DNA of 64,000 nucleotides. Source: Patescibacteria group bacterium. Lineage in GTDB: Bacteria; Patescibacteriota; Patescibacteriia; Magasanikbacterales; GWA2-37-8. The first letter of the stretch is position 1, and each line of letters starts with the position of its first letter. The position numbers and the translations under genes were made by a program. Under the pieces are notes generated by a model. The model was not told where the DNA came from. It worked only from the letters and a program-made list of their open reading frames with translations, and did no database searches. The stretch covers positions 640,907-704,906 of the forward strand of contig JBAZUP010000001.1 of NCBI GenBank assembly GCA_041661385.1, written 5' to 3'. Positions 3,435 to 39,205 of this stretch are shown here, piece by piece.

Positions 3435-3549
3435 TAATCTCAAAAAATCCTAAAGGCTAAAAAAGAATACGAATTCTTTGAGGCTGCCCCATCGGACCAA
3501 GGCCGAAAGGGACAGCCGATTGAGGATTTGAAAAACTAACTATAATTAA

Positions 3550-8975: not shown

Positions 8976-9255
8976 CGAACTGCCTCCGTGGGTGAAAATC
9001 GATTGACCATCAACTTTCTTCATTGCGCAATTGTTGCTTTTGCACAACTGAAGATTCTATCATTTTTTTACCATATTGTCAATGATATATCGATATATTT
9101 AACTGAGCTCCAATCGTATTATCAACCGTAGAATTACCCCAAATCACTTAAAAACCGCCCTTACTTGGTTTATGCACCCTGTTCTACCCTTGATTTTTCA
9201 AAATATTTATGCTATTCTAGTCAAACAAAAATTGATGTTTTTACGCTAATAAAGC

Positions 9256-9341
9256 GGAGAGGTGGCCGAGCGGTTTAAGGCAACAGTCTTGAAAACTGTC
9301 GTGCCTAATAAGCACCGTGAGTTCGAATCTCACCCTCTCCG
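9256..9341 (+). tRNA. tRNA-Ser (anticodon TGA)
   Basis: GGAGAGG...CCTCTCC acceptor, long variable arm, anticodon loop CTTGAAA, T-arm GAGTTCGAATCTC. Confidence 0.9.
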
Positions 9342-9358
9342 CTTTGTTAGTAATAAAC

Positions 9359-9484
9359 GGAGATGAGATTCGAATGGGAAAGGGAGAAAACGGGAGTTTT
9401 TTCTTGATGAGGAAAGCCCACGAAAACCCGAACGGTTTTCGTGAGAGCGAAGCGAGTTCGAATCTCCGATCGCCGCTTTGTTAG
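9359..9484 (+). repeat. tRNA-3'-associated structured element, copy 1
   Basis: begins ggagatgagattcgaa (inverted copy of the tRNA-Ser T-arm and 3' strand). It contains hairpin agaaaacgggagtttttct, core TGATGAGGAAAG, and hairpin GAAAACCCGAACGGTTTTC (9422-9440). It ends gagttcgaatctccgatcgccgctttgttag, a direct copy of the tRNA 3' end and trailer. Confidence 0.6.
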
Positions 9485-9497
9485 TTAAAAATGTAAT

Positions 9498-9584
9498 GGA
9501 GAGGTGGCCGAGCGGTTGAAGGCGTTGGTCTCGAACACCAATAAAGTCGAAAGACTTTCGTGAGTTCGAATCTCACCCTCTCCG
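9498..9584 (+). tRNA. tRNA-Ser (anticodon CGA)
   Basis: same acceptor/T-arm as upstream tRNA-Ser; anticodon loop CTCGAAC; long variable arm aaagtc-gaa-agacttt. Confidence 0.9.
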
Positions 9585-9626
9585 CTAAATTAAATACCAT
9601 CCAATAGGGGTGGTATTTAATTTATT

Positions 9627-9763
9627 GTGAATGATGAGATTCGAACTAAAGATGGAAAGAAACGAAGTTTCTTTCGTGCTGAGGAAAGTTCACGAAAACC
9701 CGAACGGTTTTCGTGAAGCGAATGAAATGAACGTGTTCGAATAGCGAAGTGCTCACCCTCTCC
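9627..9763 (+). repeat. tRNA-3'-associated structured element, copy 2
   Basis: gatgagattcgaac (inverted T-arm) ... gaaagaaacgaagtttctttc hairpin ... TGCTGAGGAAAG ... GAAAACCCGAACGGTTTTC (9694-9712) ... gtgttcgaata...ctcaccctctcc (direct 3' acceptor copy). Confidence 0.6.
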
Positions 9764-9770
9764 ACCAAAA

Positions 9771-9806
9771 CAACGACTCTCTTGTGTGGGTCGTTGTTTT
9801 TGTTTT
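9771..9806 (+). terminator. rho-independent terminator
   Basis: caacgac-tctcttgtgtggg-tcgttg followed by tttttgtttt. Confidence 0.6.
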
Positions 9807-9846
9807 ATAATAACTATATAAATTAAATAAAAATTTTTAGAAATAT

Positions 9847-9954
9847 ATGCGCGTAATATTTATTGTCGGCTTTATAGTGTTGATCATTGCAGTAACCGGT
9901 TTTTATGAATACTTTTCCCCCGACAAACCAAAGTCAAAAGACATTCCTAAATAA
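9847..9954 (+). CDS. possible small membrane peptide (35 aa)
   Basis: ATG...TAA, MRVIFIVGFIVLIIAVTGFYEYFSPDKPKSKDIPK; hydrophobic; below ORF-track cutoff; unverified. Confidence 0.2.
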   Translation: MRVIFIVGFIVLIIAVTGFYEYFSPDKPKSKDIPK

Positions 9955-17590: not shown

Positions 17591-17675
17591 TTATTTTACC
17601 CCTTTTTGATGTCTGCCGAGATATTCAGCGGACTAAGAATTCTATCAAAAAAATGGGTTTTTGTCAATGGAAGCC

Positions 17676-17797
17676 GAGGGGAATCGCACTGCTCGGCCTT
17701 CGGCCTGCGCTTTGAGAAACCGTTCGGGTTTCTCAATACTCATCCTCAGCAAGTAAGAGGGCTCGCTGCCCTCTTACCATCTCCCCGTGCGATTCCC
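17676..17797 (-). repeat. tRNA-3'-associated structured element, copy 3 (downstream of tRNA-Cys)
   Basis: read on minus strand: gggaatcgcac (inverted tRNA-Cys T-arm) ... gtaagagggcagcgagccctcttac hairpin ... TGCTGAGGATGAG ... GAGAAACCCGAACGGTTTCTC (17714-17734) ... gagcagtgcgattcccctc (direct copy of the tRNA-Cys 3' end). Confidence 0.6.
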
Positions 17798-17807
17798 AGA
17801 CACAAAT

Positions 17808-17838
17808 AAAAAGATACCTTTTATAAAGGTATCTTTTT
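17808..17838. terminator. perfect palindromic hairpin, bidirectional terminator
   Basis: aaaaagataccttt-tat-aaaggtatcttttt, 14-bp perfect arms flanked by A/T runs; sits between tRNA-Cys 3' end and element copy 3. Confidence 0.6.
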
Positions 17839-17843
17839 ATTTG

Positions 17844-17915
17844 AGGCCCGAGTGGGAATCGCACCCACGCATAGGGGTTTTGCAGACCCCTGCCTTACTG
17901 CTTGGCTATCGGGCC
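17844..17915 (-). tRNA. tRNA-Cys (anticodon GCA)
   Basis: GGCCCGA...TCGGGCC acceptor with discriminator U, anticodon loop CTGCAAA, T-arm GTGGGTGCGATTCCCAC. Confidence 0.9.
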
Positions 17916-32448: not shown

Positions 32449-32598
32449 AGTATTAAATTATTTTTTAGAGATTATAATACTATATCACAGTTTGAATACT
32501 AGCAGTAGTGTTATACCTGTGGATAAACCACTAAATATTATTTATTTTGGCTAAGAATAAGGTGGTAAATAAAAAAACGGCGGTTTGCCGTTTTAATA

Positions 32599-32735
32599 TT
32601 GTGGACCATGTGGAAGCGAACTCGTACTGCTTTGGCAGTACTCTTTGGAAAACCTTCGGGTTTTCCAATACCTTTCCTCGGCAAGTAGGAAAATTCTTTT
32701 CCTACCACCTTTGGTTCGCTTCCGATTGTTAATTG
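32599..32735 (-). repeat. tRNA-3'-associated structured element, copy 4 (downstream of tRNA-Ala-TGC)
   Basis: read on minus: cggaagcgaacc (inverted) ... gtaggaaaagaattttcctac hairpin ... TGCCGAGGAAAGG ... GGAAAACCCGAAGGTTTTCC (32647-32666) ... gagttcgcttccacatggtccacaa (direct copy of tRNA-Ala 3' end ggttcgattccgacatggtccacaa). Confidence 0.6.
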
Positions 32736-32809
32736 TGGACCATGTCGGAATCGAACCGACGGCCTCCGCGTTGCAAACGCGGCGCTCTAGCCAGCTGAGC
32801 TAATGGCCC
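32736..32809 (-). tRNA. tRNA-Ala (anticodon TGC)
   Basis: GGGCCAT...ATGGTCC acceptor with G3:U70, anticodon loop TTTGCAA. Confidence 0.9.
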
Positions 32810-38332: not shown

Positions 38333-38482
38333 CTAAGTCTCAGTTACGTCCTATATTACTAAATATAGCGCGTCGCTCGCAAAATAGAAACAGGTTTCAT
38401 TTTATTACTCACTAGGGTTATATCGCCAAGATATAGACCCGTCGCTCGGATAAAATGAATAAATTCATTTTGATCCTCACAA

Positions 38483-38589: not shown

Positions 38590-39205
38590 TATTGCTATTC
38601 TTCACAACTTCTTTTACCAATTTTGTTCGCGCAAAACATCCATCTCGTTGTCGCCCGCCTGCAACGCTATGCGTAGCATTGCGGGCAGGCTCAATCAATT
38701 ATTCATTTACCTTAATTTATATTTCCTTAGCCCTCGCCGGGCTGGCGATACTTTCATAACTGAAAGTATCCAAAGGTTTTGGGGAGATCGTCGATATAAC
38801 CACTCATTCGCGAGAACTCGGGATATCGACTTCCCCAAACCCCCATTGGTTGGCCAGTTACCAACTGGCTTCCGAGCCTTTGTGTAACGAGAGCGAAATG
38901 GCCGGCGAAATTAGATTTTTTCAATGTGATTATGCGCTTTTGAAAAAATCGTTTTGATTTCACCGTGACATTTGCCGAGTGGAACAACTGCGAGGCAATT
39001 TTGGGGGCACACCTTTTGTTGCCAAAAGGGGTGCAAAAGAGTTTTGATTGAGTGATAGCTAGGTTGAAATAAATAAAAAATCGACCGCCTGTGGCGGTCG
39101 AACTGGGGATAACTCTGTGTATAAGATGACACTATTGTGGATGTTTGTATACGTTATCCTATACAAATATTTTTTAAAATTTATGAATTTAAAATGTTTC
39201 ACATG
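38590..39205. other. ~600-bp hairpin-rich non-coding tract (candidate structured ncRNA; identity unknown)
   Basis: Successive stem-loops include gatactttca-taact-gaaagtatc (38738-38765), an imperfect long hairpin ggggagatcgtcgatat...atatcgacttcccc, gccagtt-acc-aactggc, and tcgaccgcc-tgt-ggcggtcga (39085-39107). Only short overlapping ORFs without RBS. Confidence 0.3.

Follow-up and report, generated by a model that had tools for sequence, protein, structure and literature searches.

Behind four of the seven tRNA genes called by ARAGORN in a 64,000-nucleotide (nt) chromosome segment of a Patescibacteria group bacterium of the Magasanikbacterales (GenBank assembly GCA_041661385.1, contig JBAZUP010000001.1, positions 640,907 to 704,906 of the forward strand; hereafter, the window), we found one copy each of a compact structured element, always on the 3' side of the tRNA and on the same strand. 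The element measures ~120 nt, to which a duplicated segment of the tRNA 3' end is added, and it carries no gene. What the copies have in common is a structured core of only ~95 nt; the flanks of this core are made from the local tRNA. Together with its relatives in other genomes, the element is a real, widespread, and well-structured family that is undescribed, in that we found no account of it in the literature searched. From comparison of the sequences, we tentatively favor the reading, which seems to us slightly short of probable, that it is a nonautonomous, T-loop-targeted mobile element with target-derived arms that seeds tRNA-anchored cassette arrays.

Core and arms of the element

Relatives were collected with a single degenerate core pattern run over 185,579 species genomes, which returned at least 113 loci (the compared loci are labeled L plus a number), and a covariance model trained on 48 members was then run over the window and the collected loci. 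On the tRNA strand, the order from 5' to 3' is the tRNA itself, usually a long and often perfect hairpin (H) that begins at the discriminator, a spacer of 8 to 20 nt, a 5' arm (A'), a segment J1/2 (GGGAAAGGG-like), a hairpin P2 with a C(GNRA)G loop, a junction (UUGCUGAGGAAAG), a hairpin P3 (GAAAACC-CGAA-GGUUUUC), RGAG, a hairpin P4, CGA, the 3' arm, a direct copy (A) of the tRNA 3' segment, and a second, ordinary terminator. The purine-rich junction has the consensus YUUGCUGAGGAAAG, with GAGGA invariant in 48 sequences. P3 consists of an invariant inner part (AAACC-CGAA-GGUUU) and 5 outer bp that vary, and P4 is variable, with 2 to 10 bp and GAA- or GNRA-like loops. The two arms pair in a closing stem, P1, that clamps the core into a four-way junction and carries a recurrent tandem G.A/A.G. 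The 3' arm itself comes in three forms, namely, GUGAGAUU, which gives the tandem G.A/A.G with the UCGAAC of the 5' arm; GUUCGAAU followed by the mini-hairpin AGCGAAGCG, as in window copy 2 and in L004, L015, L040, L043, L057, L061, and L087; and a full copy of the T-loop.

Compensatory changes support this fold. In P2 and outer P3, 96.3% of the alignment cells are paired and 14 of 17 pairs show changes on both sides; compensatory cells number 293, vs. 94 ± 11 in shuffles, and the covariation score is 0.53, vs. at most 0.20 with the partners slid. A preliminary description of the window had proposed a conserved fold of this kind, comprising a variable but perfectly pairing hairpin (our P2, which covaries) and a conserved junction with a nearly invariant hairpin (P3, present in the four copies), and these proposals are borne out. 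P4 is treated as an insertion in the covariance-model alignment, and its support comes from single-sequence folds and from compensatory differences among L017, L120, and L122. In at least 56 of 91 members, the P2 loop is a GNRA closed by C-G on the tRNA-sense strand, which favors an RNA made in the sense of the tRNA. As a separate observation, a 36-nt insertion in L122 (~3500-3540) replaces the otherwise invariant CGAA loop of P3, the rest being 95% like its relatives.

The flanking parts follow the neighboring tRNA closely. In the 66 tRNA-adjacent copies, A reproduces the T-stem 3' strand, the acceptor 3' strand, and the discriminator of the adjoining tRNA, with an exact direct repeat of median 15 nt (13 of 13 positions match in ~40 copies), and around 134 tRNAs, copies of the tRNA 3' 14-mer number 74 downstream vs. 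3 upstream. A' is the reverse complement of the T-loop and 3 to 4 nt of the T-stem 3' strand, and it tracks even rare T-loops (TCCGATT is matched by AATCGGAC in L105, and TGCGATT is matched by AATCGCAC in L017 and window copy 3). Duplexes of an element's own arms are more stable than those with the arms of other copies (-9.4 vs. -6.8 kcal/mol; P = 1e-8). Taking the direct copy and the inverted arm together, the termini track the adjoining tRNA in ~65 of the 66 copies, as the preliminary description had anticipated; it had also argued that arms varying with each tRNA are not those of a simple transposon with fixed termini, and this holds. Its inverted copy of the T-arm and acceptor strand at the 5' end was an overstatement: the T-loop and the 3 to 4 nt of T-stem stand, and the acceptor part does not. 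Complementarity of A' at tRNA positions 61, 62, 63, and 64 is 94, 91, 77, and 58%, respectively, and is at background from position 65 through the acceptor, so that the notion of a 5' arm antisense to the acceptor strand is not supported. A candidate inverse duplication of the whole tRNA 3' region (flank, acceptor, and T-arm) was not borne out by an in-register test, in which there was no complementarity across the acceptor, although the spacing from hairpin to arm is nearly symmetric.

The direct repeats span 12 to 63 nt and have one boundary in the T-loop and one that varies. The right junction has a fixed place within the T-loop (positions ~53 to 58), and the far end of the repeat lies anywhere from the discriminator to +47 nt, with some repeats continuing beyond the mature tRNA 3' end through the native terminator. 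The left core junction abuts the complement of tRNA position 53, and the core is therefore flanked on both sides by sequence that starts from the same tRNA coordinate, one per strand. The original of this tRNA 3' segment, a third copy, remains within the tRNA, which is intact.

Distribution, arrays, and signs of movement

The covariance model recognized at least 91 members in the collected loci and, in addition, a strongly diverged member in L118, from which it follows that the true family is wider than the search pattern. Approximately 62 of the pattern loci (at least 113) have a core 57 to 140 nt behind a same-strand tRNA; among the matches listed, these tRNAs belong to at least 18 amino-acid types, and the remaining pattern loci are mostly chance matches without the fold. 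The claim that the element is almost everywhere adjacent to a tRNA also held in the wider family, since a called tRNA immediately precedes 67 of the 91 members listed, another unit or cassette of the same array precedes 4, and 3 lie at the edge of a locus. Some 17 of the 91 have no called upstream tRNA; what precedes them is in several cases a partial tRNA 3' end or a sister element's end, and ~8 are true orphans. The orphans in L085, L095, L069, L010, L050, and L098, with neither tRNA nor tRNA fragment upstream, retain an intact P1 of T-arm-like sequence, and orphan members may be traces of rearrangement or of insertion outside tRNAs, both arms having traveled together with the core.

The hosts among the matches listed are mainly Magasanikbacteria, with Uhrbacteria and other Patescibacteria, and as far as sampled, the family is specific to Patescibacteria. 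Several loci (L014 to L017, L021, L024, L027, L040, and others) bear the title "uncultured Gammaproteobacteria" (binchicken/third-party annotation [TPA] metagenome-assembled genomes [MAGs]). Spread across phyla was refuted in the sole case examined, L017, whose TypA is 97% identical to that of Magasanikbacteria, and these MAGs appear to have been deposited under the wrong taxonomy. Scanning the whole window against Rfam 15 at the gathering score recovered tRNAs only, and at E ≤ 10 over positions 9200 to 9850, the elements were overlapped only by weak chance matches (snoRNA, and sX4 over a tRNA), in agreement with the absence from Rfam suspected earlier. A blastn search of a phage collection gave a match confined to the tRNA part, and the candidates from a pattern scan of viral contigs, two chance matches with neither hairpin nor tRNA, were discarded. 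The family is a well-supported structured element missed by present annotation pipelines for tRNAs and noncoding RNAs, and its partial tRNA copies can mislead tRNA gene callers.

Many copies are parts of larger assemblages. Tandem arrays of two units behind one tRNA occur in L004, L019, L046, L049, L060, and L080 and often mix core families with the common architecture A'-core-arm-A. Other units bear genes and are bounded by further A copies. The cassette in L040 encodes an S-adenosylmethionine (SAM) methyltransferase and is flanked by a 58-nt perfect direct repeat; that in L057 encodes HTH_17 and Fic/Doc proteins and has at its right end a miniature A'-hairpin-A clamp; that in L066 encodes a glyoxalase-family protein, with A' immediately before the start codon; and that in L059 encodes a membrane protein.

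We also observed at least two further core families in the same slot with the same arm logic, for instance, in the second unit of L004 (after tRNA-Gln), the first units of L046 and L080, the second unit of L049, and the right end of the L040 cassette. One has the form ..GGACGCGAGAGAAGCCGAGCG.GCGAGGCTTCGGTGCGCAGCGCC..GAGGGRGAAT followed by A; the other ends in ..GGCTAGACARAATTTTCGGAAGAAAATTTTAGTCGAAGCCGARC followed by A and has the GA substitution in the 5' arm rather than the 3' arm. A third kind of unit, with the end motif ..ACATCGTC followed by CC and the T-stem/acceptor copy, lies upstream of elements in L005, L008, L047, L066, and L100; in L066, this motif closes the A'-started glyoxalase-family unit.

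Movement is suggested first of all by the cores themselves, which are 93.7 to 94.7% identical beside different tRNA isotypes, on par with the best same-isotype pairs (L013 Gly-GCC vs. L074 Trp-CCA; L036 Glu vs. L061 Ser; and, within one genome assembly, L020 Met vs. L077 Lys). The identical stretch in such pairs opens with the last nucleotides of A' (..TCGAAC) and does not extend beyond the 3' arm, ending either ahead of it or inside it; each locus has its own H, spacer, A, and T-stem portion of A'. Isotype-specific lineages of the element are ruled out by the clustering of cores. Sites without the element furnish a second line of evidence. At the tRNA-Ala(TGC)-ribonucleotide reductase (RNR) locus, L117 and L119 are empty, with the tRNA followed by a terminator or gene; the orthologous locus in L118 has the diverged member, whose right-hand copy retains CCA as in the empty allele of L117, and the tRNA-proximal copy is without CCA. 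At 2260 to 2370 of L118, a GC-rich structured sequence of ~100 nt follows the element and a copy of the tRNA-Ala 3' end, ending in ..CCTTTCCACCAAA, and may be a degenerate second unit.

At the TypA-tRNA-Glu locus, in genomes with TypA sequences 95 to 97% identical, the element occupies L017, L120, and L122 and is missing from L121, and the downstream gene content differs in each of the four close relatives, as at island hot spots. The H hairpins of L120 and L122 are homologous and differ by paired changes only. The hairpin in L017 has a different sequence, homologous to the terminator located behind the element in L122, and the position of the element relative to the native terminator thus differs among close relatives. 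Although the tRNA is identical, compensatory changes distinguish H and P4 of L120 from those of L122 (and of L017). Long perfect direct repeats occur in L097 (63 nt, comprising the tRNA 3' part and the whole terminator), L080 (47 nt), and L103 (37 nt), and the long repeats include nonfunctional terminator DNA. Genes neighboring the elements are housekeeping genes (nitroreductase, M23 peptidase, RNR, and MgtC). The preliminary description had offered an att-like duplication of the tRNA 3' end by tRNA-targeted integration as one explanation, and this is borne out in part, by the downstream repeats, empty sites, arrays, and cassettes.

Features of the window

The window has a GC content of ~42% and encodes housekeeping proteins (PolA, H+-PPase, class I RNR, a type IV pilus [T4P] ATPase, Ddl, and the delta subunit of DNA polymerase III). 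The RNR sequence is identical to a protein listed at NCBI under "Patescibacteria group bacterium," and Magasanikbacteria proteins are its next-best matches, placing the organism close to Magasanikbacteria. Its element-bearing tRNAs are Ser-TGA, Ser-CGA, Cys-GCA, and Ala-TGC; no element lies behind Arg-CCT, Ala-CGC, or Ala-GGC. The core pattern matches the window four times, exactly at the four copies, vs. 0.01 expected from shuffles, which together with the ARAGORN calls upholds the original observation of four copies, each 3' of a tRNA on its strand. The covariance model built from the relatives scores these copies at 79 to 96 bits, with no other credible match in the window, and their single-sequence folds are 2.9 to 6.4 standard deviations (SD) more stable than shuffles. 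The direct copy of the T-arm and acceptor 3' end is present as described before, with divergence of the acceptor 3' part in copies 1 and 3 (in copy 1, the local alignment spans -24 to +15 relative to the tRNA end). In copy 4, the 3' arm has a changed T-loop sequence, CGCTT, that the 5' arm mirrors with AAGCG, although the copy's own tRNA reads CGATT. Copies 2 and 3 are separated from their tRNAs by hairpin H. Apart from the overstated inverted arm, the preliminary description was right as far as it went, having omitted P1, P4, and H in these two copies.

Table 1. Coordinates of the four element copies, their parts, and their anchor tRNAs in the window
Feature	Position	Strand	Basis or remark
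Copy 1, whole	approx. 9358-9476	+	
Copy 2, whole	approx. 9635-9764	+	
Copy 3, whole	approx. 17798-17668	-	
Copy 4, whole	approx. 32725-32598	-	
tRNA-Ser(TGA), anchor of copy 1	9256..9342	+	ARAGORN; Rfam tRNA 61 bits
Copy 1, 5' arm A', reverse complement of T-loop/T-stem 3' strand (..tgagattcgaa)	9358..9374	+	forms P1 in RNAfold structure
Copy 1, P2 hairpin, GGGA loop	9382..9405	+	
Copy 1, conserved junction TTGATGAGGAAAG	9404..9416	+	GAGGA invariant in 48 sequences
Copy 1, P3 hairpin CACGAAAACC-CGAAC-GGTTTTCGTG	9419..9443	+	
Copy 1, P4 mini-hairpin GC-GAA-GC	9447..9453	+	sequence; alignment position homologous to P4
Copy 1, 3' arm + T-arm direct copy + diverged acceptor 3' strand + flank CCGCTTTGTTAGT	9454..9485	+	
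tRNA-Ser(CGA), anchor of copy 2	9498..9585	+	ARAGORN; Rfam
Long hairpin H abutting tRNA-Ser(CGA) 3' end (aaattaaatacca..tggtatttaattt)	9587..9625	+	17 pairs, -20.4 kcal/mol
Copy 2, 5' arm A' (tgagattcgaact)	9635..9647	+	
Copy 2, P2	9655..9675	+	
Copy 2, conserved junction GTGCTGAGGAAAGT	9676..9689	+	
Copy 2, P3	9691..9715	+	
Copy 2, 3' arm: T-loop copy GTTCGAAT + mini-hairpin AGCGAAGTG	9733..9751	+	
Copy 2, direct copy: T-stem 3' strand, acceptor 3' strand, discriminator (CTCACCCTCTCCA)	9752..9764	+	
Terminator-like hairpin behind copy 2	9769..9797	+	sequence
tRNA-Cys(GCA), anchor of copy 3	17843..17915	-	ARAGORN; Rfam
Copy 3 including hairpin H	17668..17842	-	covariance model 79.3 bits
Copy 3, H	~17842-17804	-	
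Copy 3, A'	17798-17787	-	
Copy 3, P2	17777-17753	-	
Copy 3, junction	17752-17739	-	
Copy 3, P3	17736-17712	-	
Copy 3, P4	17705-17695	-	
Copy 3, 3' arm	17689-17679	-	
Copy 3, diverged acceptor copy	17678-17668	-	
tRNA-Ala(TGC), anchor of copy 4	32735..32809	-	ARAGORN; Rfam
Copy 4	32598..32725	-	fold z = -6.4; covariance model 89.8 bits
Copy 4, A'	32725-32713	-	
Copy 4, P2	32704-32684	-	
Copy 4, junction	~32683-32670	-	
Copy 4, P3	32668-32645	-	
Copy 4, P4	32641-32624	-	
Copy 4, 3' arm	32623-32612	-	
Copy 4, direct copy ACATGGTCCACAAT	32611-32598	-	

Elsewhere in the window, two tandem units of ~55 nt lie at 38334 to 38482, between tRNA-Arg(CCT) and tRNA-Ala(CGC), with the form CGTCGCTCG-A-rich-hairpin(..cattttat / ..cattttgat)..CTCAC; L006 has the same Arg/Ala tRNA pair with an element behind the Ala tRNA, the window's pair being without one. 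GC-rich inverted repeats (cgcccgcctgcaacgc..gcattgcgggcagg; gccctcgccgggctggcgat) occur at 38640 to 38700 and 38730 to 38775 within an AT-rich intergenic stretch.

Competing readings and known systems

If the element is mobile, insertion would be aimed at the universally conserved T-loop/T-arm and would duplicate the tRNA 3' segment in the manner of a staggered cut, akin to target-site or CRISPR-repeat duplication. Such a duplication would leave the tRNA intact and turn each new pseudo-3'-end into a fresh target, which would account for tandem arrays and for the way gene cassettes accrete. As for the inverted arm, it could be generated at insertion by a fold-back step or be kept complementary later, through selection for the P1 clamp or through template-switch correction of the quasi-palindrome (quasi-palindrome template switching is a known mutational process), and the insertion enzyme would act in trans. 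The GNRA loops, together with the tandem G.A/A.G in P1, hint at a functional role for the sense RNA that read-through transcription of the tRNA would yield; this RNA could be a partner or guide of the machinery or a transposition intermediate. A bolder version, possible but on the whole doubtful, is that of a new mobile-element class whose sole heritable part is the ~95-nt structured RNA or single-stranded DNA core, the termini being retemplated at each target. The core would then recognize the universal T-arm hairpin and insert by a fold-back/hairpin reaction that leaves one inverted and one direct tRNA 3' copy, and the whole would form an integron-like gene-capture platform for ultrasmall genomes, possibly RNA guided or ribozyme assisted.

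Several observations weigh against mobility, the case for which is built from comparative patterns. We saw no recombinase, transposase, reverse transcriptase, or nuclease in or beside the elements examined or among 20 scanned window open reading frames (ORFs), nor any excised form or junction among the data compared. The proposed scheme leaves the origin of the inverted target copy unexplained; L097 and L103 combine very long perfect repeats with poor inverted arms, and L054 and L080 match well. (An age trend linking long perfect repeats to poorly matched inverted arms was dropped, as the cases were inconsistent.) The strongly diverged member at the orthologous tRNA-Ala locus of L118 would fit long residence and coevolution, and the ~8 orphans have neither a tRNA nor a tRNA fragment upstream. 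Counts of G.U vs. A.C (37 vs. 22) are only weakly directional as to the functional strand, and the strong purifying and compensatory evolution of P2 to P4 and H would be expected of a host-beneficial RNA as well.

The last point leads to the main rival, which we consider rather unlikely: a dispensable, cis-acting functional RNA of tRNA transcription units, that is, a cotranscribed trailer with H as its processing or termination stem, spreading by duplication and gene conversion and not by transposition. A read-through transcript would carry a mimic of the T-stem/acceptor 3' half, and this mimic and the clamped core could serve as a decoy, chaperone, or sensor for tRNA 3'-end enzymes or as a tRNA regulator. 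Such a role agrees with the constant same-strand placement (as a rule no more than ~60 nt past the tRNA end, counting H and spacer), the GNRA loops and tandem G.A motif, the compensatory evolution of P2, P3, P4, and H even among the TypA relatives, the ~20 loci with a direct copy exact up to the tRNA 3' end and unrelated flanks, the omission of exactly the acceptor strand from the 5'-arm complementarity, and the persistence of the element in very small genomes; the 3' hairpins of element-bearing tRNAs are also longer (median, 16 vs. 10 pairs and -20.9 vs. -11.1 kcal/mol; P ~ 1e-10). It sits poorly with the absence from three of the seven window tRNAs and from the same tRNA in close relatives, which is also why the element must be called dispensable, and with nearly identical cores at unrelated tRNA types, repeats of 37 to 63 nt that include terminators, and ends shared by tandem copies, unrelated core families, and protein-coding cargo. 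L122 tolerates its insertion in the "invariant" P3 loop, and a strong hairpin usually stands between the tRNA and the element, so cotranscription is not assured.

An improbable alternative makes the copies attachment-site remnants or miniature derivatives, like cis-mobilizable elements (CIMEs), of integrase-driven elements that brought a replacement tRNA 3' end, the core being fused attL/attR arm regions that hold protein-binding hairpins. The T-loop, where the direct repeats begin, is reportedly a classical integrase crossover sublocation in tRNA genes (Williams 2002), and tandem accretion, cargo cassettes, the different downstream gene content in every close relative, and the CCA kept by the right-hand copy of L118 all point the same way. 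One attP, however, fits one tRNA, and the same core is found here at at least 18 tRNA types with both arms rematched, where crossover in a noncognate tRNA would yield a chimeric, dead tRNA; classical att sites have no inverted target copy, and there is no integrase near any copy examined. Under the remnant hypothesis, moreover, the tRNA-proximal repeat should move together with the core, and the nearly identical cores show the repeat and hairpin outside the common unit. We regard as very improbable a retroelement-like copy, by tRNA-primed reverse transcription or by template jumping from element RNA to tRNA in the manner of short interspersed nuclear elements or primer-binding sites. As in a primer-binding site, the 5' arm is antisense to its tRNA, but its partner is positions 53 to 64 rather than the 3' terminus; CCA happens to follow two of the window copies, but it is not enriched behind the direct copy (7 vs. 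10). The fixed right junction and variable far boundary resemble target-primed reverse transcription, and the repeats often reach the flank and terminator outside the mature tRNA. Neither a copy ending at the mature 3' end with nontemplated CCA nor an arm antisense to the 3' terminus is seen, and the tRNA-primed origin entertained earlier is not upheld. No reverse transcriptase lies nearby, and group II introns are reported as absent from Patescibacteria (PMC13011429). The group I tRNA introns of Patescibacteria described in the same paper sit in the anticodon loop and were set aside as unrelated.

Patescibacteria have genomes of ~1 Mb with few recognized mobile elements, and as many as half of the tRNA genes sampled bear the element or a relative. 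A mobile element of the favored kind would target any tRNA gene through the common T-loop without destroying the gene and would provide a route by which accessory genes (toxin-antitoxin, methyltransferase, and glyoxalase) gather beside tRNAs; target-templated termini would, if true, be a new principle for insertion elements and could serve as a programmable landing system. A cis-acting RNA would instead be a widespread, tRNA-specific 3'-half mimic with no described counterpart.

Among short repeats, miniature inverted-repeat transposable elements (MITEs), repetitive extragenic palindromes and bacterial interspersed mosaic elements (REP/BIME), Correia elements, and Rickettsia palindromic elements (RPE) are likewise short, noncoding, multicopy, hairpin-forming, intergenic, and polymorphic for presence. 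In MITEs, the terminal inverted repeats are fixed and match a transposase, and the target duplication is short and constant in length, unlike in the present element, whose arms vary by tRNA and track unusual T-loops, whose duplication runs from 12 to >60 nt with a fixed T-loop boundary, and whose interior shows RNA-like covariation. CRISPR repeat and casposon integration also duplicates tens of nucleotides with one fixed boundary and polar array growth, and some casposons target tRNA gene 3' ends; here, no cas1 or casposase is present, the inserted unit is conserved in sequence, and the duplication length varies. Hepatitis delta virus (HDV)-like theta and hammerhead ribozymes attached to tRNAs are small multihelix-junction RNAs immediately 3' of tRNAs, unlike the element, which a spacer or hairpin separates from its tRNA; no Rfam ribozyme model matched it over 9200 to 9850 even at E ≤ 10. 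A hammerhead reading of CUGAGGA (CUGANGA-like) was rejected by hand, with no stem II or GAAA in register and no model match. With respect to retron msr/msd, IS200/605 omega-RNA, and IS110 bridge RNA, no reverse transcriptase, TnpB/IscB, or IS110 gene adjoins the elements, the neighbors being housekeeping genes.

CIMEs and the tycheposons of Prochlorococcus (bioRxiv 10.1101/2020.12.28.424599) resemble the element in inserting at the tRNA 3' part, in leaving an intact tRNA and a partial tRNA direct repeat, in tandem accretion, and in small accessory cargo. They are kilobase sized and integrase dependent, with a fixed attP for one or a few tRNAs, in contrast to a ~95-nt gene-free core at at least 18 tRNA types with site-specific arms and an extra inverted target copy. 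Of the marks of tRNA-integrating elements, we thus find the direct tRNA 3' repeat flanking the insert beside an intact tRNA; there is no tyrosine or serine recombinase in or beside the copies examined or among the scanned window ORFs, and in place of one lineage per cognate tRNA, 94 to 95% identical cores occur at Gly/Trp, Met/Lys, and Glu/Ser. Integron stems are borne by the element (R''/L''...L'/R') and not copied from the target, their platform is defined by the IntI gene and attI, and they involve neither a tRNA nor a long target duplication; the attC core sites RYYYAAC...GTTRRRY are absent here (the shared AAC...GTT is trivial, as it follows from the T-loop), and no intI-like gene was seen in the window or loci. 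The likeness to attC, which we take as resemblance only, is that the fold is kept over the sequence and that a variable structured loop, at times a large one, is closed by a stem of imperfect inverted repeats in head-to-tail units of one orientation, some with a single promoterless accessory gene and others with none. In these comparisons, the element acts much as tRNA-targeting integrative elements do and has an architecture reminiscent of integron attC cassettes, but the traits that define each system are missing from the copies examined.

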